DNA of 64,000 nt from the NCBI GenBank assembly GCA_965215265.1, contig OZ244048.1:1952001-2016000 (forward strand). Direction: 5' to 3'. Origin of the DNA: Candidatus Poribacteria bacterium. Lineage in GTDB: Bacteria > Poribacteria > WGA-4E > WGA-3G. Shown in pieces: positions 7,590 through 35,629 of the stretch. Under the pieces are notes generated by a model that was not told the origin of the DNA, did not search any database, and worked only from the letters and a program-made list of their open reading frames with translations. A program made the position numbers and the translations under genes. The number at the start of each line of letters is the position of its first letter. Positions within the stretch are counted from its first letter, which is position 1.

Positions 7590-7677
7590 AGTCAGCTAAA
7601 TTTCATGTGTACAACTTGGACTGTAGAGCGCGTCAGAGCGTTGCCTTAGTTATTTTAGTAAGGTTTTGTATATCGGT

Positions 7678-9831
7678 ATGTGTCGTACCCTCCTGATTAT
7701 AAGTCTAATCCTCTTTACGCACCTCTGCATCGCCTGCATCGCCGCGCCACCGAACCCTTACCGTTTTTTTGATGTCGATGCAGTGACAGGTAAATTGGAA
7801 CCCAAGTCTCCCGAAAGTGCGGCTAAATTCTTAGAGGCACTGGATGGCTGCTGCTTTGCCGCGCCGCAGCGCAGCTTACAGCCCGATGGTGTTGAGTATG
7901 TGCTTGCACTAAAAGTGGATTTTGTTGATATGCCCGGGCGTAGAAGTGGTGCGGAATTAACACGATACCTTTTTGATACAGAAGGTGTCTCCTTGAAAAC
8001 CTACTATTGGGAGAATTCTTATGGCCAGATGGATGTTCAATCAGGTCCGCTTGGTGGTGTTATCCCAGCAGGCAATGAGTGGATACGTGCGAAAAAACCG
8101 ATGAGTTATTATGGCGAGGGTGCTGGCGTTAACGTCATCCGCAGTCAAGAATTGGTGCGTGAGGTGTGTGAAGCCGTGGATGCAAGCGTCGATTTTTCCC
8201 AGTATGACCGCGACAAGGATGGAGTCGTCGATCACGTTTTCATCATCCATTCGGGGAATGACAATGCAGCGTCTGCTGTGCCTGAGGACATCTGGTCGGT
8301 TTTAACGCCGGGTATTAATCTGGAACTTGATGGGGTACTCATTGAGACTGCTGTTCTGGTTGCTGAGGAGCCCGATTTTGAGAAACCGCATTTGGGCATC
8401 TATTTCCACGAATTTTTTCACGATTTCGGCGCGCCAGATATTTACGGACTGAATTTCACCGATGCCCGCGACCACAAGTGGGGACTGATGGGCGCGTTCG
8501 GCCCCTATCAGGGGCCTGAGGTACTTGGATTGGGCAACGGTTTAGCCCCTAGTCATATCATGGGCTATCTTAAATGGGATTTTGATGCTCGTCCTGAGAA
8601 TGGTCGTGTCGGATGGATTGAACCTGTTACGATCACACAAAATCAGAGTATCTCTATTCCGAGTTTTGAGCTTCCTCCGAAAACCGACAAACTTTTCAAA
8701 ATTGATGTCACTAAACCCGCTGCCGGGTTTGAAAAACTGTCCTTACCCGGTGCGTCTGAATTTTTCCTCATAGAAAATCGTTACAAAGCCTCAGGCGCGA
8801 CGTTTGATACCTACTTGCCAGAATCTGGTATTCTGATATGGCATATTGATGAAACGCGTGTGCGGCCCCTTGGCAGCTTTGATGCCTCGGAACAGATTTG
8901 GCTTGAAGATCCGACAGATCCGGAACACATCGGAATCTCAGATCCCGTGACGAAGTTTATAGATATTCAGAGCATTACGAACGGTGCAGCTTACTCAGCT
9001 GACGATGGCCAGACTTCTTTTACCCCTGGAAGTTTGCCTAATAGCAACGCTAACGATGGAACTGTAACCGGCATCTCAATTACTAATATCGGGCATGAGG
9101 GGTTCACTGTTCCTCTGCGGGTGTCGTTTGGGGATACATACGAGCCCAACGATACGTTCGCAAGTGCGTTTCCGCTCAGATATGGGCAGCTGTACGAATC
9201 CTTTCTGTTTGATACAAGTGATATGCGCGATATCTACCAGTTGGAAGTTATCAAAGGTGTCACGATTCGGGTGACACTCGCTGATGTTCCATTCGGACAG
9301 GAATACCGCCTATTTCTCGTTAAAGGGGTAGGGGAAATTATACAAGAAACCTATTTAGATATTCCTGATTCTGTTCGTGCGACACCTCTCACCGATACTG
9401 TTGGACTTCAACTGATTTATCAGCCTGATGTTACAGGTACATTCTACATTGTCATAGAATCCGATAGCGGCTTCAGCAGTGTTGATTCTTACCTATTGCA
9501 GGTGGAGCAGTTAGAGGCGGGGGCTTTCGCCTTGTCGGAACTTCGGATTTATCCGAATCCGCTGCGCGTCGGTGATGGCATGATGAAGTTTGAATATCGG
9601 CTCGCTGCGTCCCAAACTGCGGATACTGTCAAACTTGAGATTTTTAGTCTCGCTGGGGATATGGTTTATAGTGAGACACATCGGGATGTCTTTTCACCTG
9701 GGACGTTCGAGTGGCAGGCCGTAACGCGGCAGGGCAGTCCGATTGCAGCGGGCATCTACATTTACCGAATCTCTGCGATACAAGCGGATATAAGCGGGCA
9801 ACAGATTGGCAAGGTGAGTATTCTCAAATAA
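7678..9831 (+). CDS. secreted M6-family (immune inhibitor A-like) metalloprotease with PPC-like and FlgD/CTD-like C-terminal domains
   Basis: signal peptide, YDRDKDGVVDH, HEFFHDFGAPDIY zinc motif, EFFLIENR, GILIWHIDE, DTYEPND, YPNP...GIYIYRI. Confidence 0.85.
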   Translation: MCRTLLIISLILFTHLCIACIAAPPNPYRFFDVDAVTGKLEPKSPESAAKFLEALDGCCFAAPQRSLQPDGVEYVLALKVDFVDMPGRRSGAELTRYLFDTEGVSLKTYYWENSYGQMDVQSGPLGGVIPAGNEWIRAKKPMSYYGEGAGVNVIRSQELVREVCEAVDASVDFSQYDRDKDGVVDHVFIIHSGNDNAASAVPEDIWSVLTPGINLELDGVLIETAVLVAEEPDFEKPHLGIYFHEFFHDFGAPDIYGLNFTDARDHKWGLMGAFGPYQGPEVLGLGNGLAPSHIMGYLKWDFDARPENGRVGWIEPVTITQNQSISIPSFELPPKTDKLFKIDVTKPAAGFEKLSLPGASEFFLIENRYKASGATFDTYLPESGILIWHIDETRVRPLGSFDASEQIWLEDPTDPEHIGISDPVTKFIDIQSITNGAAYSADDGQTSFTPGSLPNSNANDGTVTGISITNIGHEGFTVPLRVSFGDTYEPNDTFASAFPLRYGQLYESFLFDTSDMRDIYQLEVIKGVTIRVTLADVPFGQEYRLFLVKGVGEIIQETYLDIPDSVRATPLTDTVGLQLIYQPDVTGTFYIVIESDSGFSSVDSYLLQVEQLEAGAFALSELRIYPNPLRVGDGMMKFEYRLAASQTADTVKLEIFSLAGDMVYSETHRDVFSPGTFEWQAVTRQGSPIAAGIYIYRISAIQADISGQQIGKVSILK

Positions 9832-17777: not shown

Positions 17778-18893
17778 TTACTGCTTAAGGTATCCCCATA
17801 TAGTGGTGAGTTTCCCTTCTGCTTCGACGGCCCGAAAACCGGTATCAAAGACCAGAACGTCTGGAATATCGCCGAGTTCTCTATTATATCCTCCGAAGAC
17901 ATAAATTTGTCCGTTGACCGTCGCTGCACCATACGGACTCAGAAGTGTTGGCAGTTCTGGAATATTCCGCCACGCCTCTTTGTGTGGACTATACACAGCC
18001 ACAGTCGCTAAAAAACGACCGTGAGCGAAACCGCCTATCAGATAGATGTCGTCCTTAACAACAATCGTCTCGAATCCCTCTCTGACATCTAACATATCCT
18101 TATTCCGCCGCCATCGACGGGTTCTCGGGGCATATTCCTCAATGCCCCTGAGAAGAGGACCCGCACCAACTGGTGGAAATCCACGTCCACCGATGACATA
18201 AAGACAAGTGCTGACAACTCCTACACCTCCAGGGTCGCGCCGGGTCGGCATTTTTGTACCCTTACTCCACCTATTCGTATCAGGATCATAGACATCCACC
18301 CGATCTATCCGCTGTTCATGTCCCTCACCGAAGCCTGTTGTCCCGCCGATAAGATAGACTTTGCCATCGAACACACCGAGATGAAAGTTGATACGAGAAA
18401 TCGGCATGTCCTTTTTCTGAGTCCATGTGTCGGTTTGAGGATTGTATGCCTCTGTGTGAAGAGGCAATTTCCAATTCTTAATTAATCTGTCTTTTGAACT
18501 ATACCCGCCAAAAACATAGATAGTGCCGTTGACAACAACAGCTCTCGCACCCTGGCGTGGCGTTGGCATATCTGTCAGTCGTCGCCATGTGTTGTTTTGT
18601 GGATCATACACCTCGACGGTTGAAATTCCATAGGGGCCGTCTGGATTTTTAAAGAGAGTGCCCCCGATGAGATAAATCTTATCCTCTACCACTGCAGTTG
18701 CGAAAGCCGTTCTCTTCGTCGAAATCTCAGTGATAACTTTCCATTCCTCACCGGCAAAGGATTCCATTCGCATAAGGAGAAAAATAAAAAAAACGAGAGC
18801 CATAACGGGAGCCGTTTTAGAATTGAATAGGCGTGGCATAGGGCATACTGACATGTGTTGTTCGCAGAAAAAAAGGGAAATTGGTAAATCCAT
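17778..18893 (-). CDS. secreted Kelch-repeat beta-propeller protein (copy C)
   Basis: six IYxxGG...W Kelch repeats, signal peptide, tail AVEAEGKLTTIWGYLKQ. Confidence 0.9.
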   Translation of the reverse strand: MDLPISLFFCEQHMSVCPMPRLFNSKTAPVMALVFFIFLLMRMESFAGEEWKVITEISTKRTAFATAVVEDKIYLIGGTLFKNPDGPYGISTVEVYDPQNNTWRRLTDMPTPRQGARAVVVNGTIYVFGGYSSKDRLIKNWKLPLHTEAYNPQTDTWTQKKDMPISRINFHLGVFDGKVYLIGGTTGFGEGHEQRIDRVDVYDPDTNRWSKGTKMPTRRDPGGVGVVSTCLYVIGGRGFPPVGAGPLLRGIEEYAPRTRRWRRNKDMLDVREGFETIVVKDDIYLIGGFAHGRFLATVAVYSPHKEAWRNIPELPTLLSPYGAATVNGQIYVFGGYNRELGDIPDVLVFDTGFRAVEAEGKLTTIWGYLKQ

Positions 18894-19214
18894 GTGCTCT
18901 CCTTTAGAGTTTTTCTAATGAGAAAAAAGCCTCGCCATGAACGTGACTTTTGTAGCAGTTATACGATGTGTAACGACCTTTTCGTAAAACTCAGACATCT
19001 AAAAGGCTTGTTGCCACCTAAAGCCACTCGGATATATCCGAAATTCGGCAGCGAACCGTGAGAGGTTATAGAAGCGAGAACCTATACAAAAACGACTCTA
19101 CGTAAATGGATAAACTCTCGCTTATCTTATGCGGAAGCCATTCGATCTATAAACGGCTTACTCTTCTAACAGGGTCCTGAAGTACACCAGTACACCCAAT
19201 GATGAGTGCTGACC
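18658..19214. repeat. 557-bp direct repeat, copy 1 (offset 5030 bp)
   Basis: identical by eye to 23688-24244; spans peptide 3' end, spacer and Kelch 5' end. Confidence 0.9.
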
Positions 19215-19438
19215 TGCTCAGCACAACAAGTCTGGGCGGGCACGCTACAAGTCGCGAAGCGTCCGCATTGGACCTGATCGCATGCTGCTGCATCGGGTGT
19301 GACCATCAGTGATGCGAGGATTGCACCTGTTGCGACAGTGCCAGCGACTAACGCATTCTTATGAGCGACATGCCCATCTTCTTTGACGAAGAAGTCGCTG
19401 ATGCACTGCTTCGTCAGTTTTGCTATGTGTCTCTGCAT
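19166..19438 (-). CDS. 90-aa Cys-rich precursor-like peptide (copy 2)
   Basis: AAGGAG SD; paralog at 24196-24468 with many synonymous differences; leader, hydrophobic segment, AxA site, 7-Cys core. Confidence 0.85.
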   Translation of the reverse strand: MQRHIAKLTKQCISDFFVKEDGHVAHKNALVAGTVATGAILASLMVTPDAAACDQVQCGRFATCSVPAQTCCAEQVSTHHWVYWCTSGPC

Positions 19439-19695
19439 GAGATTTTATCTCCTTGAGTTTATCGTAGAAAGGGTTTTGGTAAAATAATGATGTGATATCA
19501 GCAGGATACCCTCTGGATCGTGCTGCATCATCTTTCAACAATCAGAAGGGTAGCAACTCGGGCAACTTCTCTTTCTCAGACGTGTCTCCTCATTGAGAAC
19601 CAACTCAATGCTACCCGAGGAGACGCTCACACGTTGCCCAAAACATCAACGCCATTCCTTTTGACAAAAGGAATGCGTCAACACTCGCCGAGCGT

Positions 19696-20559
19696 TCAGT
19701 GTCCTTTGGCTTTGACGATCATCGGGGTGCCCGTCTTCGCTCCATTTTTACCCACCAGATGATGTGCATTCCCCGAGGCATCTAAGAAGGTCGCCGTGCC
19801 AGCAGGCTCATCAAAATGCCATAACGCCACTGTCTTTGCGTCATTCTTGAACTGGCCGTCTGGCATAAAACCCTTTTTCTCAACATCATAACGTGCAACC
19901 CTCGAGATGCGGACCTCATCAATATATCCCGTGAAGGAATCCCAAAACACTTTGGATGGCGGACGACCAGGCACCTCAATTATTTTTCCAAACCCTCCAA
20001 GCATGAAGTCCTTTGGACGCAAAGCACGAGGATCAAGATCATGTCCGAGGGGGTGATCTTGTTGTATTGTCTTTACGAAATCATTGACAATCATTGTTGT
20101 CTGAGGTCCATTAGACTGATAAACGATATGGTGCCATTGGTTCGGCTCCAGCGGAATCGGGAAAGGGATTCTCCAACCGAGCATTCCCTCAATATAGGCA
20201 CTCATTAGCAAGATAAAGTCTCCCTTCGGAGGCTCTATATTATGCCCATTAGCCAGATTATTTAGTAGCGGTTGATATTCATCGTTCATGATAGTCAGAC
20301 GCACCTGTTGATGGAGTATCGTCAATAACGTGTCCTTGTTGTCGGGCGGTGTGGTGGGATATATCCAGGCTTCAACGGTGAATTCGTCTGTCCCTTCCGG
20401 TAAAAGCAGCCCGAAGGTTTCAAAATCTAAAACGGCGTAGTCATCAACCCCATCGAGGGCTAAGTAGTTTCCGCCTGCGGGTGAAGGGGGCGGGAGTGCT
20501 TTGGCACTCAGCGGAAGGAATATAAGCAAGAGACATGCGAGGCGTTGCCGGTATCTCAT
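19696..20559 (-). CDS. secreted LamG/concanavalin-like domain protein (copy 2)
   Basis: ALDGVDDY, FTVEAWIYP, QWHHI, FTGYIDEVRIS, TVALWHFDE; AGGAG SD before ATG 20559. Confidence 0.9.
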   Translation of the reverse strand: MRYRQRLACLLLIFLPLSAKALPPPSPAGGNYLALDGVDDYAVLDFETFGLLLPEGTDEFTVEAWIYPTTPPDNKDTLLTILHQQVRLTIMNDEYQPLLNNLANGHNIEPPKGDFILLMSAYIEGMLGWRIPFPIPLEPNQWHHIVYQSNGPQTTMIVNDFVKTIQQDHPLGHDLDPRALRPKDFMLGGFGKIIEVPGRPPSKVFWDSFTGYIDEVRISRVARYDVEKKGFMPDGQFKNDAKTVALWHFDEPAGTATFLDASGNAHHLVGKNGAKTGTPMIVKAKGH

Positions 20560-20714
20560 TTTTTCTCTCCTTTTCGTAGATAAGTCTGTGAGTTTCATTG
20601 TAAATCTCAGTTTTCATTGCCGGATCAGCAACAGTTTCTATTCTCTCTTAGAGACCCCTTTTTTGTCAAAAAACGGGCAGAATCTGAAAAAAGTTGAAAA
20701 AAAATAGCGCACAT

Positions 20715-20999
20715 TTAAACGTCTAAAATTGTGCAATTCCAGAGAAATTCAATCGTGGCATAATCTGTCACGTCTCGCTGAAGATGCGGATGGGTCTCAC
20801 GCCATAACTTCGCCGTGCTTTTCAAAAGTTGTTTCAACTGATGTAGATAGTCCCCCAAAGATGTCGCCTGAATCTGAGCCGCGAGGTGTTTTATCTCTCT
20901 AATATGCTGTAACCGTTTGGTTTCACGCCATCGCTGATAAGCGAACGGACCTACAACAACAACCGTCAGAATCAGCGTCAGCAAGATATGTTTTTTCAC
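20715..20999 (-). CDS. small membrane-anchored protein, possibly a truncated gene
   Basis: AAGGAG SD before GTG 20999; KKH plus hydrophobic helix. Confidence 0.55.
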   Translation of the reverse strand: MKKHILLTLILTVVVVGPFAYQRWRETKRLQHIREIKHLAAQIQATSLGDYLHQLKQLLKSTAKLWRETHPHLQRDVTDYATIEFLWNCTILDV

Positions 21000-21068
21000 A
21001 ACACTCCTTTCTCCCCCATGGGAGTTGTAAACGATTGTTAACGCGAAAGGGATTTTACGATATTCCAA

Positions 21069-22169
21069 TTATGGTTTTCTTTTGAGTTTTCCCCAGCGTG
21101 TTGGCAGTTTACCTGTTGCCTCAACGGCCTGAAAACCAGTATCAAAGACGAGAACGTCTGGCAAAAATTCCAATCCTTCTCCAGCCCCGCCGAAAACATA
21201 AATCTTGCCGTTGACCGTCACTGCACCAAAAGGGCGTAGGGGCGTGGGCATCGATGGAATATCGCGCCATGTCTCTGTCCGTGGATGATACACATCCACT
21301 GTCGCTAAATACTCACGAGGTATTTGTTGCTGAGGGAAACCTCCAATCAGATAAATCTCATCTCTAACAACCGCTGTCGAGAATGAAAATCTGAGGGCTA
21401 ACATCTCCTTTTTCTTTTCCCATTGATGACTTATTGGGTCATATGCCTCAATGACCGTCAGGGCATGCCGACCCGCGCCTGCGGGTGGCCATCCGCCGAT
21501 GACATAAAGACGGTTGTTGACGACAGTCACATCTCCTGGGTCGCGGCGAGTCGGCATGTTCGGTGCTTTTCCCCACATATCCGTCGCTGGATTATAGACA
21601 TCAACCCGTGCCATCGCTACTTCATGTTCCGGACCGACACCCGTTGAACCGCCGACGAGATAGACCCTTCCCGCAACCACACCCAGATCAAAGCTGATAC
21701 GAGAAACCGGCATATCTTTTTTCTTGATCCATCTATCCGTCTTCGGATTGTATGCCTCTACGTGAACCGTAGTTTTCATATTCCAAATTTTGTTATCTTT
21801 GGCACTATACCCGCCAAAGACATAGATAATCCCGTCGACTACCGCAGCTCTCGCACCATGGCGGGGTGTTGGCATGTCTGCGCGTCGCCGCCACGTATTG
21901 GTTTGTGTATCATACTCCTCAACGGTTGAAAGTCCAAAGGGTCCGGGAGCTATTGGAGGACGTGCCTTCAGGTCTTCAAAGAGGCTGCCACCGATGAGAT
22001 AAACTTTATTATCCACAATGGCTGTGGCGAAACCCTCTTTCTCCGTCGGGAGTTGAGTGACGAGTTCCCAATCCGCTCCGGCAAAAGAGGCGATTGACAT
22101 CCATAAAAGAGTGAAAACAACGCCGCCAATAATGATACCTTTTTTGGAATTAAACACGCTTAACATCAA
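21069..22169 (-). CDS. secreted Kelch-repeat protein (copy B)
   Basis: Kelch repeats, AGGAGG SD with TTG start, tail AVEATGKLPTRWGKLKRKP. Confidence 0.9.
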   Translation of the reverse strand: MMLSVFNSKKGIIIGGVVFTLLWMSIASFAGADWELVTQLPTEKEGFATAIVDNKVYLIGGSLFEDLKARPPIAPGPFGLSTVEEYDTQTNTWRRRADMPTPRHGARAAVVDGIIYVFGGYSAKDNKIWNMKTTVHVEAYNPKTDRWIKKKDMPVSRISFDLGVVAGRVYLVGGSTGVGPEHEVAMARVDVYNPATDMWGKAPNMPTRRDPGDVTVVNNRLYVIGGWPPAGAGRHALTVIEAYDPISHQWEKKKEMLALRFSFSTAVVRDEIYLIGGFPQQQIPREYLATVDVYHPRTETWRDIPSMPTPLRPFGAVTVNGKIYVFGGAGEGLEFLPDVLVFDTGFQAVEATGKLPTRWGKLKRKP

Positions 22170-22324
22170 TTATTCCTCCTTGTTTAGTTGTTATTAAGGC
22201 CCTATTCTTAGCTTGCTATAGCTATTGGCAGGCAGTTAGTTTCTTTTATCTGCGACATCGCTTGCATCAACACAGACTTTTTGAAGCCTCACAAACTTAC
22301 CGAAAGTCGAGAACCGCCTGCGAA

Positions 22325-22740
22325 TCATTGTGCTTTGACTGTCAGTGAGGTATCAGTCTTCGCGCCATTTTTACCCGCCAGATGATAGGCACTACCCGAT
22401 GTGTCTGAGAATTCCTTTGCTCCCTCCGGTTCATCAAAATGCCACAACGCGAGGGTCTTCGCGTCATTCTTGAACTGGCCGTGCGGCGTGAAACCATCTT
22501 TCTCGACATCGTAACGAGGAATCGTTGAGATGCGGACCTCATCAATGTATCCTGCAAAAGCACCCCAAAAGTGGTTGTGACTGCTGGAACCAATCTTCTC
22601 TCCAAAGCCGCCGAGCGTAAAATCCTTTGGGCGCTCGATGCTTGAGAGATCGTCTGCAAGCATCGTTCCTTGCGGTAAGATGTGTGCGTAATCGTTAACG
22701 ATTGTTGTTGTCTGATGCCCCTTCGCTTGAAAAACGATGG
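22325..22740 (-). pseudogene. 5'-deleted LamG gene
   Basis: closely matches the 3' half of LamG 24854-25696; similarity stops at about 22740, next to the Kelch downstream sequence. Confidence 0.85.
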
Positions 22741-22792
22741 AATACTAGTTGTAAACGATTGTTAACGCGAAAAGGATTTTACGACATTCTAA

Positions 22793-23923
22793 TTATGGTT
22801 TTCTTTTGAGTTTTCCCCAGCGTGTTGGCAGTTTGCCGGTTGCTTCGACGGCGCGAAAACCGGTATCATATACCAGAACGTCTGGAAAAAACTCGAAACC
22901 TTCTTTCGCCCCTCCGAAAACATAAATCTTTCCGTTGACCATCGCTGCACCAGAAGGTGAAAGGGGCATCGGCAATGCTGGAATATCGCTCCATGCTTCT
23001 TTCTGTGGACTATACACAGCCACAGTCGCTAAAAAACGCCCGTGAGCCAAACCGCCAATCAGATAGATATCCTCCTTAACAACAACCGTCGAGAAAGCCC
23101 GTCTGATGTCTAACATTCCATTTTTCTGCCGCCAATGACGGCGCTCCGGGTCATATTCTTCAATAACCGTCAGCAACGGATCCCAACCGATTGGGGGGCC
23201 AACCGGTGGCCATCCAGATCCGCCGATGGCATAAATACGATTATTCACAACCGCTACATGGAGATACTCGCGCGCTGTTGGCATTTTTGGGGGACCCTTC
23301 GCCCATGTATCCGTGGCAGGATTATAGACATCCACCCGATCCATCCGTCTTTTATCGTCTATACGGAAACCTTCACTTCCACCGAGGAGATAGACTTTTC
23401 CAGCGACCGCACCCAGACCAAAGTAGACACGAGATATCGGCATCTCCTTTTTCCGGGTCCATATCCCTGTTGCTGGGTTGTATGCCTCTACGTGAACTGG
23501 ATATTCCCACTTTCCATCTTTCATACGGACTCCCCCGAAAACATAGATGATCCCGTTAACAACCGAGGCTTGAGCCGCCTCACGTGGCGTTGGCATATCT
23601 GTGATTCTCCGCCACGTGTGGTTCTGCGTGTCGAACACCTCAACTGTGGAAAGTCCAACGGGGCCCTTGTCAAAGTTTTCAAAGCTTGTGCCCCCGATGA
23701 GATAAATCTTATCCTCTACCACTGCAGTTGCGAAAGCCGTTCTCTTCGTCGAAATCTCAGTGATAACTTTCCATTCCTCACCGGCAAAGGATTCCATTCG
23801 CATAAGGAGAAAAATAAAAAAAACGAGAGCCATAACGGGAGCCGTTTTAGAATTGAATAGGCGTGGCATAGGGCATACTGACATGTGTTGTTCGCAGAAA
23901 AAAAGGGAAATTGGTAAATCCAT
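22793..23923 (-). CDS. secreted Kelch-repeat protein (copy A)
   Basis: Kelch repeats; N-terminus identical to copy C, C-terminal tail identical to copy B. Confidence 0.9.
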   Translation of the reverse strand: MDLPISLFFCEQHMSVCPMPRLFNSKTAPVMALVFFIFLLMRMESFAGEEWKVITEISTKRTAFATAVVEDKIYLIGGTSFENFDKGPVGLSTVEVFDTQNHTWRRITDMPTPREAAQASVVNGIIYVFGGVRMKDGKWEYPVHVEAYNPATGIWTRKKEMPISRVYFGLGAVAGKVYLLGGSEGFRIDDKRRMDRVDVYNPATDTWAKGPPKMPTAREYLHVAVVNNRIYAIGGSGWPPVGPPIGWDPLLTVIEEYDPERRHWRQKNGMLDIRRAFSTVVVKEDIYLIGGLAHGRFLATVAVYSPQKEAWSDIPALPMPLSPSGAAMVNGKIYVFGGAKEGFEFFPDVLVYDTGFRAVEATGKLPTRWGKLKRKP

Positions 23924-24244
23924 GTGCTCTCCTTTAGAGTTTTTCTAATGAGAAAAAAGCCTCGCCATGAACGTGACTTTTGTAGCAGTTATACGATGTG
24001 TAACGACCTTTTCGTAAAACTCAGACATCTAAAAGGCTTGTTGCCACCTAAAGCCACTCGGATATATCCGAAATTCGGCAGCGAACCGTGAGAGGTTATA
24101 GAAGCGAGAACCTATACAAAAACGACTCTACGTAAATGGATAAACTCTCGCTTATCTTATGCGGAAGCCATTCGATCTATAAACGGCTTACTCTTCTAAC
24201 AGGGTCCTGAAGTACACCAGTACACCCAATGATGAGTGCTGACC
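23688..24244. repeat. 557-bp direct repeat, copy 2
   Basis: identical by eye to 18658-19214. Confidence 0.9.
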
Positions 24245-24468
24245 CGCTCAGCACAACAAGTATCTCCCCACGAACACTGATTGCTTAAGTCAGGACAAGG
24301 TGTCCGTGGACACGCGTCTGCATCGGGTGTGATCATCAGAGACGCAAGGATTGCGCCTGTTGCGACAGCCCCAGCGACTAAGGCGTTCTTATGCGCAACA
24401 TGCCCATCTTCTTTGACAAAGAAATCGCTGAGACGCTGTTTCGTCAGTTGTGCTACGTGAGTTTGCAT
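24196..24468 (-). CDS. 90-aa Cys-rich precursor-like peptide (copy 1)
   Basis: AAGGAG SD; same leader and Cys frame as copy 2. Confidence 0.85.
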   Translation of the reverse strand: MQTHVAQLTKQRLSDFFVKEDGHVAHKNALVAGAVATGAILASLMITPDADACPRTPCPDLSNQCSWGDTCCAERVSTHHWVYWCTSGPC

Positions 24469-24853
24469 GAGATTTTATCTCCTTCATTTTGTAGTAGAAA
24501 CGGTAATGTTTTAACCAGAGATGCACAAAACATCTCAAATGTAGCAAACAACACCGCTTCTTAGAATTAGAGGGTTTTCGGTAAAATAATGATGAGATAG
24601 AGTGCCCTCATAACACTCTTTTCCCAGACTCGTCCGACATTACCCCGACAGTCCCACAGGCTGGTAAACCGTTGGTGCCGTGGGTAGCTTTCGACGAGGC
24701 GACAATTCTGTTTGTGTTGCTGTTAGGTGTGCGTCATCAATAGTTCGTCCGCTTTCAGCAACTGTGTCGTTTCGATACGAGATTTGAACCTTGGCGCGGC
24801 TATGGTTCTTGATATCGTATCGAAGCCATCTAATAGAACTTTTCTTAGAGGTA

Positions 24854-25696
24854 TCATTGTGTTTTGACTGCAAGCGGGATGCCGATCTTTGCACCATTTT
24901 TACCCGTCAGATGGTGAGCATTCCCCGATGCATCCGAGAATGTCGGCGTTCCGCCTGGCTCATCAAAATGCCACAACGCCACTGTCTTTGCGTCATTCTT
25001 GAACTTGCTGTGCGGCGTGAAACCAGTTTTATCGACATCGTAACGAGGAATCGTTGAGATGCGGACCTCATCGATATATCCCGCAAAAGCACCCCAAAAG
25101 TGATCGTGACTCCTGGAACCGATTTTCTCTCCAAAACCCCCAAGCGTAAAATCCTTTGGACGCTCTAAGTTTGAGAGATCGTCCGCTAGCGGTGTATTTT
25201 GAGGTAAGATGTATGCGTAATCGTTAACGATGGTTGTTGTCTGATGCCCATTCGACTGAAAAGCGATGTGATGCCATTGATTCGGCGAAAGTGTTCTCGC
25301 GTGGTGCGGGGTCTCAGCAACCCCTCCCCTCACCATAAAATGTGCTTGAATTCTGAGGAATAAATCTCCTTTCTGCCAATCGAGGGTATCCCTTGCTCCC
25401 TCCCATCCGGCGTGAACATCGTTGACAACATCCATCCGCACCTGCTGGCTGAGAATCATTGCGTGTATCTCATCAGCAGGCGGTGTGGTGGGATATATCC
25501 ACGCTTCAACGGTAAATTCGTCTGTCCCTTCCGGTAACAGCAGCCCGAACGTTTCAAAATCTAAAACGGCATAGTCATCAACTCCGTCAAGGGCTAAATA
25601 GTTTCCGCCTGCGGGTGACGGGGGTGGGAGTGCTTTGGCACTCAGCGGCATGAAAACAAGCAAAAAGAGACAGGTAAGGATGTGTCGGTGTCTCAT
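24854..25696 (-). CDS. secreted LamG/concanavalin-like domain protein (copy 1)
   Basis: signal peptide; ALDGVDDY, FTVEAWIYP, QWHHIAF, YIDEVRIS, ALWHFDE. Confidence 0.9.
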   Translation of the reverse strand: MRHRHILTCLFLLVFMPLSAKALPPPSPAGGNYLALDGVDDYAVLDFETFGLLLPEGTDEFTVEAWIYPTTPPADEIHAMILSQQVRMDVVNDVHAGWEGARDTLDWQKGDLFLRIQAHFMVRGGVAETPHHARTLSPNQWHHIAFQSNGHQTTTIVNDYAYILPQNTPLADDLSNLERPKDFTLGGFGEKIGSRSHDHFWGAFAGYIDEVRISTIPRYDVDKTGFTPHSKFKNDAKTVALWHFDEPGGTPTFSDASGNAHHLTGKNGAKIGIPLAVKTQ

Positions 25697-25956: not shown

Positions 25957-28020
25957 TTATTGCAGCATCGCTACGAGCGTATCCACTTCAGTGGTGGGTA
26001 CTTGGCAGGCATAATTTTCGCATACATAAGCGGTTGCTCTGTTATCAATCTGAGTTTTGTCTGCGAGAATTGGCAAAGTGGATTCTCTTGTGGGTTCAAT
26101 CAAAGCGACAATTTTGTTAGGCAGATACTGCCCATGTAATGCCGCTAACATTGCGTTGGTCGCTGTGTCTGCTTTTTGTCCGACAATCGCGATTTCCTTA
26201 GGTGTTGACAGCAGGAAAGCGAGTTCACAGAGGAGTTGTCCGGAGCCTGAGGGCATCGCCTCCATTTGATGGTAGTAGAGTTTCAACGTCTCAACCGCTC
26301 GATCGTGGAATTCCGGATTGTCAAGGTATTTGGCAAGCCTTAGGAGACTATGGATCGCCATGGAAGCGCCAGAGGGGGTTGCGCCGTCGTATGCAGATTT
26401 GGAGTGGACGATAAGGGGTTCGTGTGCTTTGCCTATGAAAAAAAAGCCTCCGCTGGTTTCGTCTGCGAATTGTTCAATCATGATATGTGCGAGTCTTTCC
26501 GCCTCCGTGAGCCAGCGTGGTTCAAAGCTCGCTTCGTAAAGCGCGATTAAGCCTGCGATAAAGTAGGAATAGTCTTCAAGGTAGGCGTTGAGGTGGCTTT
26601 TACCGGTGCGATGGGTGCGCCAGAGGAGTCCATTCTCTTGTGAAAGCGTAGTTAAGATAAACTCGGCAGATTTTTGGCATGCTTTAAGGTATTCAGGCTT
26701 GCCTGTCAATTGGTATCCCATCGCCATACCGCGGAGCATGAGGCCGTTCCAGCTCGTTAAGATTTTGTCGTCTAGTCCGGGTTTAATCCGTTTTTCACGT
26801 GCTGCGAACAACTTCTGTTTTCCGTCTGCGAGGATTGCTTCGAGTTCACTTAATTCCATCTGCAGTTTTCGGGCAAAGATGTCCGGTGGCGTTTGGACGT
26901 GGAGGATGTTTTCACCCTCAAAATTCCCGTGCGGTGTGATATCGTAAAATTCACAGAAGATTTCGGCATTTTTCTCGTGGGTGATGTCTTCTACTTCCGT
27001 GGGTTCCCAGACAAAAAACTTGCCTTCCACCCCTTCGCTATCGGCATCTTGCGTGGAATAAAAGCCGCCGTTCTCTGTGTCGTACATCTCACGGAGTACA
27101 TAGTCCAGCGTCTCCGTTGCGATGTGGCGATAGAAAAGTTTTTTGGTAGCTTGGTATGCCTCAAAATAGGCGATGACGAGCTGTGCGTTGTCATACAACA
27201 TTTTTTCAAAGTGTGGCACGAGCCAGTGTGCATCGGTAGAGTATCTGTGGAAGCCCCCTCCGAGCTGATCGTATATACCCCCCCGTGCCATTTTTTCCAA
27301 GGTCAATTCAACCATTTCCAAGGCGTTGGGGTTGCTGCTATGGTGCCAATAGCGGAGGAGAAAAGGCAGTCCCATACTGGGTGGAAATTTGGGGGCGGTT
27401 CCGAAGCCGCCGTATTGGGGGTCGAATTGAGAGCGGTAATGTTGAAAGGCATTCTCCATTAGCTCCTCAGTGAGTTGCTGCTCGTGCGAATCAACGATTT
27501 GACTCATCTGGTTCAGATGTGTTGTAATCTGGTTGGCTTGTTCGAGTACCTTTTGATTTTGTTCGCGGTACGCCTCAGCAACGGCGTGCATCACCTTGGG
27601 GAAGCCGGGTCTTCCGTACCGGTCTGTAGGTGGATAGTAGGTACCGCCGTAAAAAGGCTGGAGCTCAGGTGTGAGGAAAACAGTCATCGGCCAGCCGCCG
27701 CTGCGTGTCATGACTTGAACAGCGGTCATGTAGATTTCATCTAAGTCTGGTCGTTCCTCCCGATCGACTTTAATGTTGACGAAGAGTTCGTTCATAACTT
27801 GTGCGATCTCTTCATTTTCAAAGGATTCGCGTTCCATAACGTGGCACCAGTGGCATGCGGAGTAGCCGATGCTCAGGAGTATGGGCTTGTCCTCTTGCTT
27901 GGCGTGCGCTAACGCCTCTTCGCCCCACGGGTACCAGTCAACCGGATTGTGTGCGTGCTGGAGGAGGTATGGGCTTGTTTCGTGAATAAGTCTATTGGTG
28001 TATTTGGCGGTATCGTTCAT
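25957..28020 (-). CDS. YyaL/SSP411-family thioredoxin-domain protein (DUF255)
   Basis: [42 protein letters not shown]. Confidence 0.95.
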
Positions 28021-28495: not shown

Positions 28496-29965
28496 CTACT
28501 GCAGCGTGATGTTCGAGAAGGTATAGAAAATATTCACAAACCCGATGAAAAGCGTTGGCACGACAAAGACGCTCAATAGGGCAAAGGTGCCTGTAGAGAA
28601 GGCAACATCCTCCGTCTCCTCTGCGGTTTCAAGATACATCGCCTTCACAATGCGTGCGTAGTAATAGAGAGAGACGACGCTGTTCACCAATCCAACAAAG
28701 GCGAGCCAGTACAAGCCTTTGTCGATGACGGCGGCGAACAGTAACCATTTTCCAAAGAAGCCGGCGAACGGGGGGATGCCAGTGAGTGAGAAGAGGAAAA
28801 TCGCCATTGCCCCGGCGACTAACGGGGCACGTGCCGAGAGCCCGCGATACCCATCAATCATTTCGCTTCCGACTTCGTTGGCGATGAGGACGACAACGTA
28901 GAATGCCCCTAAGTTCATAAATAGATAGACGACGAGGTAGAAGAGAATGGCACCGATTCCCTCAGACGTGAGCAACACACCACCCATGAGGAGGTAACCG
29001 CCGTGCGCGATGCTTGAGTAGGCAAGCAGACGTTTGACATTCTGCTGGGGGAGCGCAGCGAGATTACCGACAGTCATCGTGAGTGCAGAGACAACCGCTA
29101 ACATCAACGTCCAGTCAACGGATTGCATGACGGCTGAATTGCTAAAACCGGAATAGAAGAAACGAATGAATAGGGCGAACCCAGCCGACTTTGAGGCGAC
29201 AGATAAGAACGCTGTTATCGGAATCGGCGCGCCCTCATAAACATCAGGTGACCACATATGGAAAGGCACCGAGGCAATCTTATAGCCTACACCCGCCAGG
29301 ATAAACGTGATTGAAATTAGCACGGCAAGCGGATAGACCTCGCCGGAACTGAACATTTCGGTCAGACGTTGACTGATTTGTCCAAGGTCGCCGGTGCCAG
29401 TCATGCCAAATATGAGAGAGAGCCCGAATAGCATTGTTCCAGACGCAACAGCGCCATACGTAATGTATTTGAACGCTGCTTCACTTGAACGCGGGCTGTG
29501 TGTCAAGAATCCAGCGAGGATATAAGAGGTTAGACTGACTGTTTCCAAGGAGATAAATATCATCAATAGGTTCGTTGATGATGCCATGAGGAACATGCCG
29601 AGTGTTACAGCTAATAAGAGGGCATAGTATTCGCCTTTGAGTCGGGCATCGAGTTCTTCAGAGCATAGGGAAAAGAGGATTGTCGCCGCTGTTGCAAGAA
29701 GAAGGATAATTTTGAAGAAGGTAGCGAACCCATCGAGGCGAATCATTCCCAGGAATAGGGATACGGATTCGTTTGTTCCGAGAGATACATGCGTGATGAG
29801 GACAGCCCCTAGGACACAACCAACCCCTATTAACGAGAGGTATGCAACAGCACTACTCTCACTATTTCTTACCACCAAATCGAGGATGATAACGGCGGCG
29901 GCGAATACGACCAAAAGTATTTCCGGGCTAAAATAGAGTAGGCTATCAATGTTATTTAATTGCAC
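28496..29965 (-). CDS. nuoN: NADH-quinone oxidoreductase subunit N
   Basis: EAAFKY, KIASVPFHMWSPDVYEGAP, KRLLAYSSIAH. Confidence 0.95.
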   Translation of the reverse strand: MQLNNIDSLLYFSPEILLVVFAAAVIILDLVVRNSESSAVAYLSLIGVGCVLGAVLITHVSLGTNESVSLFLGMIRLDGFATFFKIILLLATAATILFSLCSEELDARLKGEYYALLLAVTLGMFLMASSTNLLMIFISLETVSLTSYILAGFLTHSPRSSEAAFKYITYGAVASGTMLFGLSLIFGMTGTGDLGQISQRLTEMFSSGEVYPLAVLISITFILAGVGYKIASVPFHMWSPDVYEGAPIPITAFLSVASKSAGFALFIRFFYSGFSNSAVMQSVDWTLMLAVVSALTMTVGNLAALPQQNVKRLLAYSSIAHGGYLLMGGVLLTSEGIGAILFYLVVYLFMNLGAFYVVVLIANEVGSEMIDGYRGLSARAPLVAGAMAIFLFSLTGIPPFAGFFGKWLLFAAVIDKGLYWLAFVGLVNSVVSLYYYARIVKAMYLETAEETEDVAFSTGTFALLSVFVVPTLFIGFVNIFYTFSNITLQ

Positions 29966-29974
29966 ACCGTCCTC

Positions 29975-31495
29975 CTATAGGTTCGCCAATTTCTCAACAG
30001 CCCCGACCAGCTCCTCAACATATTTGTTGAACATATCAATGGCGAAGTTGGGCCAAACGCCGAGGACGATGGTTAAGATTCCGAGCGGCAGGAGTGTTAG
30101 AATTTCGCGTGGGTTGATTTCTGACAGGGATTCATATTTTGGATTGAGTTGTCCTAAGAAAACGCGTTGGAGTGTCCAGAGGAAGTATGCTGCGCCGACA
30201 ACGATGCCGATGGTTGACAAGACAGTCAACATCTTAAATTTGTCGTAAGCGCCGAGGAGGGAGAGCGCCTCACCAACGAATCCACTCAGACCGGGCAGTC
30301 CTAAAGATGCCATAAAGGCGAGCGTTGTGATGCCGGTATAGATGGGGACTCGGCTGCCTAATCCACCGAACCCATTAATTTCGCGGTGGTGTGCTCTATC
30401 GTAGAGGACACCGACGAGCAGGAAGAGCATTGCACTGATCACACCGTGGTTAAACATCTGAAGAATGGCACCTGTCACGCCGCTCTCATTTCGTGCTGCT
30501 AACCCCAAGATAACGAAACCCATGTGCCCGATACTAGAATACGCGACGAGTTTCTTAAAATCGGTTTGCGCTAATGCACAGAAAGAGCCGTAGACGATAT
30601 TAATGAATCCCAGGAGTGCCAAACTGTTGCCCCAAGTGCCTTGTCCGTTACAGAAAAAGTCCATGCCTTGCGGGAACATTTCCATGTTAACGCGGACGAG
30701 CCCGTAGGTTCCCATCTTCAAGAGGATGCCGGCAAGGATGACGCTGATGGCTGTAGGTGCCTCAACGTGTGCATCGGGTAGCCAAGTATGAAAGGGGAAA
30801 ATTGGCACTTTGACAGCAAACCCAATAAAAAAACCAATGAACACCCAGATCTGGAAACTCAAATCGGCGAGGGCGTGTCCGGGAGTGGCTGCCAATGTAA
30901 TGAGCGTTGGGATGTCGAACGTACGTGCCCCTGGTGCACCACTCTTAAGGTATACTGCTATCATTGCAACCAGCATCAACACACTGCCGAAGAGGGTATA
31001 GAGGAAGAATTTGATGGCGGCGTATTCGCGGCGCGGACCGCCCCACACGCCGATGAGAAAATACATGGGCAGCAGTGTCAGTTCAAAGAATACATAAAAC
31101 AAGAAGAGATCTAAGGAGGCGAAAAAGCCTAACATTCCGGTTTCCAATAGGAGAAAGAGGGCCATATACGCCTTAATGCCTTTTTCTATGTTTCGCCATG
31201 ATGCTAGGACACAAATTGGACCTAAGAGCGCAGTGAGGAGCAGCAGCGTTACGCTGAGCCCGTCAATGCCGACGTGATAACGGATGTTAAATGCCTGGAT
31301 CCAAGGGGCATCCATCTCGTACTGTGTTCCCGACATGCCGCGGTCGTAGTCTATAAATAGAAATACAGCGATGAAGAGCGGAACGAGTGTAAACATCAGC
31401 GTCACCCGTTTTACCAACTCATCCGACCCTCGTGGAAGAAGTAGAACAGCGAGCATCCCGAGCAACGGGACAAAAATCATTAGGGACAATAACAT
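29975..31495 (-). CDS. nuoM: NADH-quinone oxidoreductase subunit M
   Basis: DLFLFYVFFE, PFHTWLPDAHVEAPT, LLKMGTYG. Confidence 0.95.
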   Translation of the reverse strand: MLLSLMIFVPLLGMLAVLLLPRGSDELVKRVTLMFTLVPLFIAVFLFIDYDRGMSGTQYEMDAPWIQAFNIRYHVGIDGLSVTLLLLTALLGPICVLASWRNIEKGIKAYMALFLLLETGMLGFFASLDLFLFYVFFELTLLPMYFLIGVWGGPRREYAAIKFFLYTLFGSVLMLVAMIAVYLKSGAPGARTFDIPTLITLAATPGHALADLSFQIWVFIGFFIGFAVKVPIFPFHTWLPDAHVEAPTAISVILAGILLKMGTYGLVRVNMEMFPQGMDFFCNGQGTWGNSLALLGFINIVYGSFCALAQTDFKKLVAYSSIGHMGFVILGLAARNESGVTGAILQMFNHGVISAMLFLLVGVLYDRAHHREINGFGGLGSRVPIYTGITTLAFMASLGLPGLSGFVGEALSLLGAYDKFKMLTVLSTIGIVVGAAYFLWTLQRVFLGQLNPKYESLSEINPREILTLLPLGILTIVLGVWPNFAIDMFNKYVEELVGAVEKLANL

Positions 31496-31610
31496 TTTTT
31501 TTGTCTTTCCTTTCGGTTAAACAAAGGAGATTTGGAGTTTAATATTCCGTTTTTAAAGTCATTTGCCGGTTTGGCAAGTTTTAGTTTCGTCAAAAACCGT
31601 GGTAAAACTC

Positions 31611-33845
31611 TTACAGCGCCCGAAAGACTAAAATTAACACAACAATACCAGCGAGGACAACGATTAGATAGGTTTGAATCGCCCCGGTCTGGATGCGTCG
31701 AATTCTGCCTCCGACTGCCCAGGTGACTTGTGCGATACGATTGACGATGCCATCAACGACGCGGTTGTCAAAAAAGCCGGTGAAGGCAGCGAGGATATCA
31801 CGCGTGACAAGCCCAACGCCGTTAACGATGCCATCAACAATACTTCCATCAAATTGTGCAAAGAGCCGTGACTTCCATACTGTCAGGGCGACGAGTACGC
31901 CGTCATAAAATTCGTCAAAGTAGTATTTATTCCAGAATAGGTTGTAGACGGGGCGGAAGGTGTTCGCCACCGTCTCAGCGGAAAGCCGTTGTTTCTGATA
32001 AAATAGCCACGACAGGAATATGCCTAACGCAGCAACACAGATAGAGAGTACCATCGCGATAGTGTGTGCAGGACTATGTCCGTGATGTGCGTTGTCTGCG
32101 TGTGTGTCATGCGCGCCTTCTTCCTCAGCTGCAACGGCTTCAGAGATACCGAAGAACGCGAATGTTCCTTTGGTATTATTTTCATGAGTCGGGATTCGGT
32201 GTAAGTGCGCATGAGCAGGCTGATGCAGATGCGGCTGCGGCGGTACTTTCACATAATCGGCGTTAAACCATAATGTATTGACAACAGGAAAACTGAGCAA
32301 CGCTAAGACGATAAGCGGTACGGTCATCGTCTTTGGGGATTCATGCGCCATATCGTGCATTTGTTGATTGCGTGGCTCCCCGAAAAATGTCATAAAGATC
32401 AGGCGAAACATATAGAAGGCAGTAATACCCGCTGCAAAAAGTGCGATACCGAATAGAATATAGTGATGGACAGAGTTCCATGCCATCGCGCGGTCCAGTA
32501 CCCCACCTAAGATTGCGTCCTTGCTCCAAAACCCGGAGAAGAGAAACGGCACCCCAGAGATAGACAGTGTAGCGATGAGCATTGTGACGAAAGTAATCGG
32601 CATTTTATGCCGAAGTCCCCCCATATTACGCATATCTTGATCTGGTGGGATGTCGGCACCGTGTTCATAGGCGAGTTCATGGTTGTTGTGCTCGTGCGTA
32701 TCCCGGTGTTCGTGTGCTGACTCGTTGTGTGCATGTTCATGTTCATGATTATGGTTGTGGGCGTGCATCGCGTGGAAGGCATGAATGACGCTACCGGAAC
32801 CGAGGAACAACAGTGCCTTGAAAAACGCGTGCGTTGTGAGGTGGAATAGCCCAGCTACATAACTTCCTACGCCAATTCCGAGCATCATGTACCCGAGTTG
32901 GCTAATAGTAGAATATGCCAAGACCCGCTTAATGTCAAAACGGACGATGGCGATAGTCGCTGCGATGAGTGCTGTAATGCCACCTATATAAGCAATCACA
33001 AGAGACGATGTTTCTGTTAAAATCGGGAACATCCGTGCGGTGAGGTATACCCCCGCTGCTACCATCGTTGCGGCATGAATGAGGGCACTTACCGGTGTGG
33101 GACCCTCCATTGCATCAGGGAGCCAGGTGTGCAGTGGTACCTGGGCAGATTTCCCGATTGCGCCACAAAAAATTAGCACGCCTGCGATTGAAAGCCACAC
33201 CATATCTGCAGTGGTTAGTTGAGTCGCCGCGAGTCCGAAAATCCCGTTATCGCCATGGAGTGCAAGCGTGTTGAATTTGGTAAACAGCATCATCATGCCG
33301 ATGAACATGCCGATGTCCCCTACGCGCGTAGTCAAGAACGCTTTTTTACATGCATTCGCTGCAGAGTCTTTCTCAAACCAGAAACCGATGAGCAGATATG
33401 AACAGAGCCCGACTAACTCCCAACCGATATAGATGCCGAGCAGGTTGTCAGAAACGACTAAAAAGAGCATCGAAAACGAGAAGAGAGAGAGATAAGCGAA
33501 AAATCGTGGGTATCTCGGATCACCGTGCATATAGCCCATTGAGAAAATATGCACGAGACTACTCACGAGCGTCACAACAATCAACATGATTGCCGTGACA
33601 CTGTCAAAATAGAATCCCATAGAAAAGTTAACCTGCCCGATGGAAATCCATTCGACGGTGTGCGCTTCAGGTTCCGGAATTACCTGTTGCCAAAGTAGTA
33701 GTGAACAGACAAGCGCGATGAGCATTGCTGCTGTAGAGATATAGTCTTGTCGAGGTACACGCCGTTTTGCGAGTGACATGAGTCCGAAGATAGCAAAAGC
33801 GGCGAGTGGACAGAGTAAGAGAATGCTAATTAGCGGGACAGTCAT
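31611..33845 (-). CDS. nuoL: NADH-quinone oxidoreductase subunit L with His-rich loops
   Basis: GKSAQVPLHTWLPDAMEGPTPVSALIHAATMV, HAFFKALLFL. Confidence 0.95.
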   Translation of the reverse strand: MTVPLISILLLCPLAAFAIFGLMSLAKRRVPRQDYISTAAMLIALVCSLLLWQQVIPEPEAHTVEWISIGQVNFSMGFYFDSVTAIMLIVVTLVSSLVHIFSMGYMHGDPRYPRFFAYLSLFSFSMLFLVVSDNLLGIYIGWELVGLCSYLLIGFWFEKDSAANACKKAFLTTRVGDIGMFIGMMMLFTKFNTLALHGDNGIFGLAATQLTTADMVWLSIAGVLIFCGAIGKSAQVPLHTWLPDAMEGPTPVSALIHAATMVAAGVYLTARMFPILTETSSLVIAYIGGITALIAATIAIVRFDIKRVLAYSTISQLGYMMLGIGVGSYVAGLFHLTTHAFFKALLFLGSGSVIHAFHAMHAHNHNHEHEHAHNESAHEHRDTHEHNNHELAYEHGADIPPDQDMRNMGGLRHKMPITFVTMLIATLSISGVPFLFSGFWSKDAILGGVLDRAMAWNSVHHYILFGIALFAAGITAFYMFRLIFMTFFGEPRNQQMHDMAHESPKTMTVPLIVLALLSFPVVNTLWFNADYVKVPPQPHLHQPAHAHLHRIPTHENNTKGTFAFFGISEAVAAEEEGAHDTHADNAHHGHSPAHTIAMVLSICVAALGIFLSWLFYQKQRLSAETVANTFRPVYNLFWNKYYFDEFYDGVLVALTVWKSRLFAQFDGSIVDGIVNGVGLVTRDILAAFTGFFDNRVVDGIVNRIAQVTWAVGGRIRRIQTGAIQTYLIVVLAGIVVLILVFRAL

Positions 33846-33861
33846 AACGTTCCTTTAACCT

Positions 33862-34170: not shown

Positions 34171-34231
34171 TTTTTTTTCGTATGGTTCCGTGTCTTTTTA
34201 CCGTGGCCTTTGCCTCTGTAGGGTTGCCGAA

Positions 34232-34753: not shown

Positions 34754-34895
34754 CTATCAAACTAACCTTTTGTCATTCTAATCCTTGGATGACAGAAAAC
34801 AAATTTTCGGTATAACCGGCCGGAGTGTTTCTGGCGAGAGGGCACTTAGGACTTCACCGCCAATTCGTCTAATCGCTTTAAGCACCAAATTTCCT

Positions 34896-35612: not shown

Positions 35613-35629
35613 GTCGTATTTTCCTCCTT

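Follow-up and report, generated by a model that had tools for sequence, protein, structure and literature searches.

Cysteine-rich peptides of a Candidatus Poribacteria genome as candidate orphaned precursors of a leader-guided maturation system

The stretch of DNA analyzed here, referred to as the window, comprises 64,000 nucleotides of the complete 4.83-Mb genome of a Candidatus Poribacteria sponge symbiont and carries two genes for 90-residue peptides, A and B, each of which joins a conserved leader to a core with seven cysteines. We favor, though by no great measure, the reading that these peptides are precursors that have been orphaned from a new maturation system, which is guided by the leader and probably glycosylates its substrates. 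This view is based on a leader that is almost invariant across the peptide family, on an operon in related genomes whose two glycosyltransferases begin with a predicted recognition element of peptides that are made by the ribosome and modified after translation (RiPPs), and on the scar left where the corresponding enzymes beside the window peptides were deleted. An earlier note, drawn up from the DNA letters and without database searches, had described the two peptides as RiPP-like precursors; both open reading frames (ORFs), on the minus strand, are borne out with the leader and core sequences that it quoted, and the combination of an invariant leader with a variable core supports its assignment.

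Peptide A is encoded at positions 19166..19438 and peptide B at positions 24196..24468 of the window, stop codons included, as established from the ORF list together with family membership for A and BLASTP for B. The leader of A corresponds to residues 1-52 (19283-19438) and its core to residues 53-90, while the leader of B occupies 24313-24468; the two peptides share 66 of 90 residues (73%, BLASTP E 8e-49). As the note had pointed out, both genes possess a strong Shine-Dalgarno sequence (AAGGAG, 10 nt ahead of the ATG) and a common upstream motif, TATTTTACC(N)AAAACCCT, which is present in exactly two copies in the window, one per peptide gene, with 0.01 expected; on the minus strand these copies lie at 19469..19486, 31 nt before the ATG of A, and at 24571..24588, 103 nt before that of B. 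A function of this motif as a regulatory site was rejected, as the two copies stand at distances from their genes that differ by about 72 nt, and comparison with related loci identified the upstream regions as one ancestral region carrying an indel of about that length, so that common descent accounts for the motif, which by itself is no evidence of regulation. Within the leader codons, 16 synonymous and 9 non-synonymous differences separate A from B (synonymous rate dS 0.635, non-synonymous rate dN 0.08, dN/dS ~0.13), and the leader is therefore kept by purifying selection on the protein. Codons 53-70 are saturated between the copies, and the final 20 codons show 0 synonymous changes and 1 non-synonymous change. 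Because these last codons are nearly identical and a 99% identical repeat (D4, 18646-18945 and 23676-23975) is located ~220 nt downstream of the peptide genes, spanning the 5' end of the adjacent Kelch genes, the 3' part has probably undergone recent gene conversion or duplication. Both peptide genes are mosaics.

A search of 5.8 billion proteins retrieved 193 family proteins of 79-103 residues at E<=1, and a near-invariant leader followed by a variable cysteine core was found throughout the 120 matches listed. The leader profile was positive in 72 of 151 sampled Poribacteria genomes, with up to 21 matches per genome, and all 25 related genome loci belong to Candidatus Poribacteria; a cluster look-up of 10 distant leader-family proteins yielded almost no names. 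Leader positions 8-33 hardly vary among 121 aligned members. The leader opens with a recognition segment, K-x-R-[LI]-S-D-F-F-x-K-E-[DE]-G, and continues with a hydrophobic stretch of 19 residues, after which come an invariant Pro and A-x-A; E20 and G22 do not vary across leader subfamilies, P48 is retained across subfamilies (118/121 members), and Ala is the commonest residue at positions 50 (82/121) and 52 (83/121), the remainder including other small residues. With four to five Lys or Arg among residues 1-28 and a mean hydropathy of 1.9-2.0 over residues 29-47, this region displays the positive n-region, h-region, helix breaker and small residues at -3 and -1 of a Sec signal with signal-peptidase-I features, and the hydrophobic stretch, Pro and A-x-A thus read like such a signal with its cleavage site.

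The core, of ~38 residues, is organized on a scaffold C-(C-C-CC-C-C), in which copies A and B carry the extra Cys immediately after A-x-A. Across the 121 members the core retains only C58, C64 and C71, an aromatic patch and, for the most part, C72 and C85, and the Cys directly after A-x-A is found in 73, of which 72 have seven cysteines; members without it contain 3 to 7 Cys, mostly 4 to 6. Directly after the CC pair, 98 of the 121 members have Ser or Thr and only three have Ala, including both window copies, and Ala is likewise found in the closest relative (L010, 91% identical), whose genome (G105, 95% complete) possesses neither of the two enzyme types described below, that is, the glycosyltransferase with a recognition element and the cluster A24 peptidase. 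This hints, thinly as it concerns three related sequences only, that Ser after CC might be a modification site that is now dispensable in the window copies. C-C-CC-C-C is the spacing of the knottin or inhibitor cystine knot framework. The knottin-like frame that had been proposed for the core agrees with it in the spacing of six of the seven cysteines, which is the sole basis of the likeness; the fold itself found no counterpart, as the AlphaFold2 (AF2) model shows a small beta structure with four short strands (predicted local distance difference test, pLDDT, 68-89, and ~50 for the leader), for which Foldseek returned no match in the PDB at E<=0.001 and a VIA wide search no convincing one, with a best Z of only 2.6. 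Neither peptide matched any Pfam family at E<=0.1, pilin and Flp families included.

The earlier note had also likened the leader to HxsA-type precursors of the His-Xaa-Ser (Hxs) system, which are processed by radical S-adenosylmethionine (SAM) enzymes. For the leader this proved correct, while the rest of the Hxs system is missing. The NCBIfam model HxsA3 weakly matches residues 10-53 of the two peptides (17.0 and 15.4 bits; cut-off 65), and a leader-only profile built from 11 leaders and run on 1.84 billion representative proteins (E<=0.001) found 155 proteins, 148 of them new. These new matches comprise 68 proteins with at least 4 core cysteines, 7 rich in His-x-Ser (HxS), 66 that are short or otherwise different and 7 long ones. 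Metagenome relatives of one HxS-rich match are HxsA4 (70.9 bits; cut-off 55) and adjoin genes for HxsB (464-555 bits; cut-off 370), HxsD and HxsC-like radical SAM proteins; the profile thus retrieves HxsA3/HxsA4 proteins in their own genetic context, and by sequence comparison the N-terminal segment of the leader is homologous to HxsA3/HxsA4 leaders. It was also observed that long proteins (P0122, 5185 aa; P0249, 410 aa; P0262, 341 aa) contain many tandem stretches matching leader positions 5-24 or 13-24, with repeat units such as ...LAKEDGRVGN..., so that the core motif of the leader recurs inside large, unrelated-looking proteins.

The cores of the window peptides contain no HxS repeat array, and in the present genome the best hits for HxsB (100 bits; cut-off 370) and HxsC (43.9 bits; cut-off 267.9) remain far below the cut-offs, and none lies near the peptides. 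The genome holds 16 radical SAM genes, the nearest being 105 kb from an intact peptide gene, and no radical SAM family recurs across the 25 related loci; processing by such enzymes, as had been suggested, is thus not upheld. The search with the leader alone and the inspection of neighbors that had been recommended did uncover the Hxs leaders and an A24 peptidase, though no recurrent radical SAM family. The radical SAM gene that lies at a distance of 7 kb from one leader remnant was rejected as maturase, being AhbD/NirJ-like and separated from the remnant by unrelated genes.

What does recur around the peptides became apparent when the ORFs of the 25 related loci were clustered and then annotated with Pfam and NCBIfam, locus counts including fragments. 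The recurrent order on one strand is peptide, Kelch protein, a ~665-aa cytochrome c (CytC) fusion, two cytoplasmic GT4 glycosyltransferases (~581 and ~546 aa), an A24 peptidase (~378 aa), a 102-aa protein and a GHMP sugar kinase, with extra peptide-Kelch pairs optionally placed between the second GT4 and the A24 gene. GT4, A24 and Kelch genes are each found in 16/25 loci and LamG genes in 10/25, and a propeller gene (17 Kelch, 1 PD40) directly follows 18 of 30 peptide ORFs on the same strand. The ~665-aa protein combines an N-terminal membrane anchor, an UshA-like part, four CxxCH motifs and a thioredoxin-fold domain. One such protein (L014 11685-13679, 665 aa) scores 212.7 bits (cut-off 275) with the NCBIfam model 'UshA-like (seleno)protein', and with its relatives it represents an unusual fusion, in which four haems and a monothiol CPFG thioredoxin fold are joined to a phosphoesterase-like part.

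The GT4 transferases match Pfam Glycos_transf_1, and the ~85 N-terminal residues of both match the N-terminal ~78 residues of radical SAM maturases of the ScfB-related and SCIFF kinds, with E 1.2e-9 (ScfB-related) and 2.4e-6 (SCIFF) for the second GT4 and 1e-4 for the first; the match to PqqD is weak (E 0.027). The AF2 model of the second N-terminus shows three strands followed by three helices (pLDDT >=84 over residues 1-80), and the first GT4 aligns to this modelled region. The best Foldseek matches of the model in the PDB are CteB structures 5wgg/5why (E 2e-4, probability 1.0), followed by TbiB1 (5v1u/5v1v) and 6jx3, lasso-peptide proteins whose structures include the bound leader peptide, and, more weakly, by McbB, ThcOx, LynD and PqqD. 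Each GT4 is accordingly predicted to begin with a RiPP recognition element (RRE), modelled for the second enzyme and assigned by alignment for the first, and since the matched structures are leader-binding domains, the operon appears RiPP-like. When the RRE region was used in a word-based search, nothing was retrieved beyond close GT4 orthologues, which bear the names 'glycosyltransferase' or 'hypothetical'.

In the A24 enzyme the catalytic Asp positions D48 and G107-D108 are invariant in 16/16 sequences and the C-terminal domain is of archaeal type (Pfam Arc_PepC); compared by sequence with solved structures, the protein gave a chance match only. In genus g9, three A24 genes of the cluster type carry one in-frame TAG each (G047:C1:1068505-1069620, G058:C1:2742736-2743851 and G093:C2:765886-767007), which could be due to recoding, to an artefact of assembly or to a pseudogene that they share. 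The recurrent neighbors include no assembly ATPase, platform or secretin and no ABC or C39 family, and PADLOC assigned none of 11 system proteins to a defence family. Upstream of the peptide, a 200-aa DUF7119/ParB-HTH-like protein (L013 3412-4023) occurs in 6/25 loci and a ~970-aa ORF with ECF sigma regions 2 and 4 and Sortilin/BNR-like repeats in 20/25; either may be a dedicated regulator.

In the window itself this enzyme block is absent, and a 117-aa chimeric ORF (20715..21068, minus strand) points to its loss. BLASTP aligned residues 23-88 of this ORF with residues 2-67 of the 664-aa CytC fusion of locus L014 (67% identity, E 1e-27), and residues 82-117 with residues 67-102 of the 102-aa protein of the same operon (61% identity, E 5e-14), two proteins that are unrelated to each other (E 8.7). 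These alignments identify the 117-aa ORF as what was left when a deletion took out the enzyme block beside the window peptides. The same scar is present at a paralogous locus at 797 kb, and the deletion therefore predates the duplication of the two loci. Four further family elements were found in the genome, namely the third intact paralogue at 797 kb, whose 7-Cys core differs, a more distant one at 3.15 Mb and two leader-only pseudogene fragments (G000:C1:3335506-3335670 and 3149516-3149620). The sole set of operon enzymes retrieved from this genome by tblastn with the L014 proteins is diverged (32-39% identity) and lies at 3.145-3.153 Mb, 1.17 Mb from the window. This second operon (L035, G000:C1:3140001-3158000), the only complete copy of the system in the present genome, runs from an ECF sigma factor through RRE-GT4, a split GT4, a 95-aa precursor, a PD40 protein, two small ORFs, A24, CytC fusion and a 150-aa ORF to a nucleotidyl transferase; its type-2 precursor is encoded at L035 9692-9979 on the minus strand, and a PD40 propeller replaces Kelch. 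One of its GT4 genes appears split into ORFs of 144 and 380 aa, and a Type ISP restriction-modification gene (L035 15120-17924) adjoins the operon. The earlier expectation that a maturase, if there is one, must act in trans holds for the present genome, because the enzymes that adjoined the window peptides have been deleted.

From these observations we infer the modification, the cleavage sites and the function of the peptides, as well as their role as substrates of GT4 and A24, the order of the steps and their biological role. The RRE would bind the leader so that the GT4 domains could glycosylate the core in the cytoplasm, after which the precursor would be inserted into or moved across the membrane, the leader would be lost through cleavage by A24 and/or at A-x-A, and disulfides would form in the periplasm; the resulting small disulfide-rich (glyco)peptide would then work with its neighboring propeller protein. 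The window copies, as orphans, would either be served in trans by the diverged 3.15-Mb operon or be exported unmodified. A more far-reaching proposal, which is put forward tentatively, is that of a new RiPP class of sponge symbionts in which an HxsA-type leader within the n-region of an export signal recruits RRE-GT4, A24 acts as leader peptidase, a haem-coupled thioredoxin-fold protein helps to fold a knottin-like core, and cores diversify as multi-copy libraries, each with its own secreted propeller. Peptide-propeller pairs could also represent ligand-receptor or toxin-immunity pairs, acting between symbiont and host or between symbionts.

The co-occurrence of peptide and enzymes speaks for the reading of the window peptides as orphaned precursors of a glycosylating system. 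It was counted by hand over the same 151 genomes, which are related and hence not independent, so that the numbers are descriptive: 60 genomes have both peptide and A24, 12 the peptide without A24, 2 A24 without the peptide and 77 neither, and for RRE-GT4 the corresponding numbers are 56, 16, 1 and 78. Several points weigh against this reading. Cluster A24 is missing from 12/72 and RRE-GT4 from 16/72 peptide-positive genomes, including the nearly complete G105. Among the 38 genomes of genus g2, the peptide is found in 11 and A24 in 10 (both in 9), and RRE-GT4 in only 1; two g2 loci, L047 (G019) and L048 (G035), display a minimal cluster, which lacks GT4 and consists of the peptide, PD40, A24 and CytC fusion. 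Glycosylation is therefore not universal, the leader being kept in these clusters with no RRE enzyme seen nearby, and A24 emerges as the more constant partner of the leader. An alignment of the GT4 RRE with the N-terminus of one HxsB showed no likeness (hhalign probability 0.4). The thioredoxin-fold domain of the ~665-aa protein has CPFG and not CxxC, which makes disulfide formation by it uncertain, and export of a glycosylated core via Sec would be unusual. Finally, known A24 substrates presumably differ from the present leader, in which the invariant Gly22 precedes the hydrophobic stretch by 6 residues.

The peptides may instead be regarded as plain secreted or periplasmic disulfide-rich mini-proteins, whose leader is an extended Sec signal cut at A-x-A and whose unmodified core binds the Kelch or PD40 protein, GT4, kinase and A24 acting on something else, for instance the propeller or the envelope. 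This explanation, which we hold to be unlikely, would agree with the classical h-region, the invariant Pro and A-x-A, with the peptide-propeller pair as the tightest unit (18/30 peptide ORFs), with the existence of GT-less clusters, with the intact orphan peptide-Kelch pairs of G105 and of the window, and with a core that is predicted to fold alone (pLDDT 68-89). However, an invariant 28-residue n-region, evolving at dN/dS ~0.13, would be unexpected for a mere signal peptide, the more so as it is homologous to the leader of the radical-SAM-modified HxsA3/A4, and the operon offers its two RRE-bearing GT4 enzymes no other obvious peptide substrate. Improbable, too, is a pilin-like variant with a class III signal, in which A24 would cut after Gly22 and the hydrophobic helix would be kept as an anchor or assembly helix that displays a variable Cys-rich knob. 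Of the 62 genomes with A24, 60 also have the peptide, the A24 enzyme possesses both catalytic Asp and persists even in GT-less clusters, G22 and E20 are invariant across leader subfamilies, and the F-x-x-E-[DE]-G motif of the leader presumably resembles Flp prepilin leaders. Nevertheless, no Pfam pilin or Flp family was matched at E<=0.1, the recurrent neighbors lack assembly ATPase, platform and secretin, the hydrophobic stretch begins 6 residues past G22, an A-x-A is conserved after the helix, and HxsA3/A4 share E-[DE]-G, yet no A24 family was found in the two longest Hxs loci with annotated neighbors.

The loss of the enzymes also raises the question of whether the window copies are decaying relics that ceased to function when their cognate enzymes disappeared, as might be suspected from the deleted block, the leader-only pseudogene fragments elsewhere in the genome and the replacement of the usual Ser/Thr after CC by Ala in both copies. 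Such decay appears decidedly improbable in view of three intact paralogues that retain start codon, Shine-Dalgarno sequence, leader and all scaffold cysteines, of a leader dN/dS of ~0.13 between copies that are well diverged synonymously, and of intact neighboring Kelch genes. Least credible, and in our judgment very improbable, is that the peptides are Hxs-like substrates matured in trans by radical SAM enzymes, or lipoproteins acylated on the Cys after A-x-A. The former could invoke the homology of the leader to HxsA3/A4 leaders, but HxsB reaches only 100 bits (cut-off 370) and HxsC 44 bits (cut-off 268), HxS repeats are missing, the nearest radical SAM gene is 105 kb distant and the one close to a leader remnant is AhbD/NirJ-like. 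The latter could invoke a Cys at +1 in 73/121 members. The lipobox motif is L-[AS]-[GA]-C, however, and A-A-A and A-D-A precede the Cys in the window copies, while 48/121 members lack that Cys altogether; the suggestion of the earlier note that the odd Cys might be lipidated is thus abandoned.

Comparison with known systems helps to place the candidate precursors. With Hxs they share the leader family, [KR]-x-[IV]-S-x-F-x-x-x-E-[DE]-G followed by a hydrophobic stretch and a small-x-small site, but differ in a Cys-scaffold core without HxS repeats, in a genome without HxsB/C/D, and in their partners, which are RRE-GT4, A24 and a fusion of cytochrome c with a thioredoxin fold. For an HxsA of E. 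coli, the available part of one report describes cytoplasmic maturation, N-terminal cleavage and periplasmic action (PMC13128918). Class III signal peptides and their A24 peptidases (PilD, TadV, FlaK) offer a parallel in an A24 enzyme that has both catalytic Asp and an archaeal-type C-terminal domain, and in a substrate candidate that combines a charged N-terminus with an invariant Gly and a hydrophobic helix; here, in contrast, no pilus or archaellum assembly genes lie nearby, no Flp or pilin Pfam family is matched, an A-x-A follows the helix, and the operon contains RRE enzymes. Prochlorosins and conotoxin-type families combine an invariant leader with hypervariable cores. The present family resembles them in its many scattered copies per genome, some of which are distant from the enzymes, and differs from them in its leader family and its enzymes and in that copies are paired with their own propeller gene. 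As regards glycocins, the resemblance consists in small disulfide-rich ribosomal peptides with an odd number of Cys, glycosylation being here a supposition, and the sublancin cluster includes redox genes. Sublancin, glycocin F and thermoglycocin are small disulfide-rich ribosomal peptides glycosylated on Ser or Cys, often with an odd Cys number; their SunS-like transferases are not described there with an RRE, leader removal falls to C39-peptidase ABC transporters and the producers are Firmicutes (PMC12457901), unlike the RRE-GT4 and A24 found here. Neither a SunS-type transferase nor a C39 transporter is among the recurrent neighbors of the 25 loci.

In the literature, RREs fused to glycosyltransferases have been reported for PF00535, a family other than GT4, in the part of the text available (PMC12710340), and a preprint on RiPPs of Poribacteria describes the unrelated srp proteusins (bioRxiv 10.1101/2023.06.09.544420). 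The words 'A24' and 'aspartic' occur 0 times in the available portion of a 2023 review of RiPP leader proteases (PMC10885120), and a literature search found no paper linking a prepilin peptidase to a RiPP leader peptide. If the proposed maturation is real, it would provide GT4 glycosyltransferases that bear an RRE, place an A24 intramembrane protease within a RiPP-like operon, and join the phage-defence radical SAM system Hxs to a glycosyltransferase system through one leader family; the literature searches made here found none of these in print. Should this be true, uncultured sponge symbionts would gain a large hypervariable set of secreted Cys-rich peptides paired with eukaryote-like Kelch proteins, and their long-suspected role in host interaction would become testable; the window would show a biosynthetic operon reduced to orphan precursor-propeller pairs.

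With regard to the remainder of the window, the order on the minus strand is LamG, peptide B, Kelch, LamG fragment, Kelch, 117-aa ORF, LamG, peptide A and Kelch, and the genes that follow are all on this strand. The Kelch beta-propeller directly downstream of peptide A (17778..18893, 371 aa, Pfam Kelch_1 E 8.5e-61) has an N-terminal hydrophobic segment, that directly downstream of peptide B (22793..23923) comprises 376 aa (E 1.7e-57), and the third (21069..22169) comprises 366 aa (E 3.7e-58). LamG/concanavalin-like secreted proteins are encoded upstream of peptide A (19696..20598, 300 aa, Laminin_G_3 E 1.8e-8) and upstream of peptide B (24854..25696, 280 aa, E 3.1e-9). The truncated LamG fragment at 22325..22663 represents the C-terminal part only, was recognized by tblastn to residues 144-280 of a 282-aa LamG protein, belongs to repeat family D1 and has no Pfam match. 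Directly upstream of the peptide array lies a gene for a 687-aa DUF255/thioredoxin-DsbH-like protein (25957-28020), followed by a run of NADH:quinone oxidoreductase (nuo) genes (28496-38152), and both appear unrelated to the peptides. The window further encodes a beta/gamma-crystallin-domain protein (2010-3425), a long flotillin/SPFH protein (3553-6183) and an M6 peptidase with C-terminal FlgD-Ig and CHU_C (type IX secretion) domains (7666-9831).

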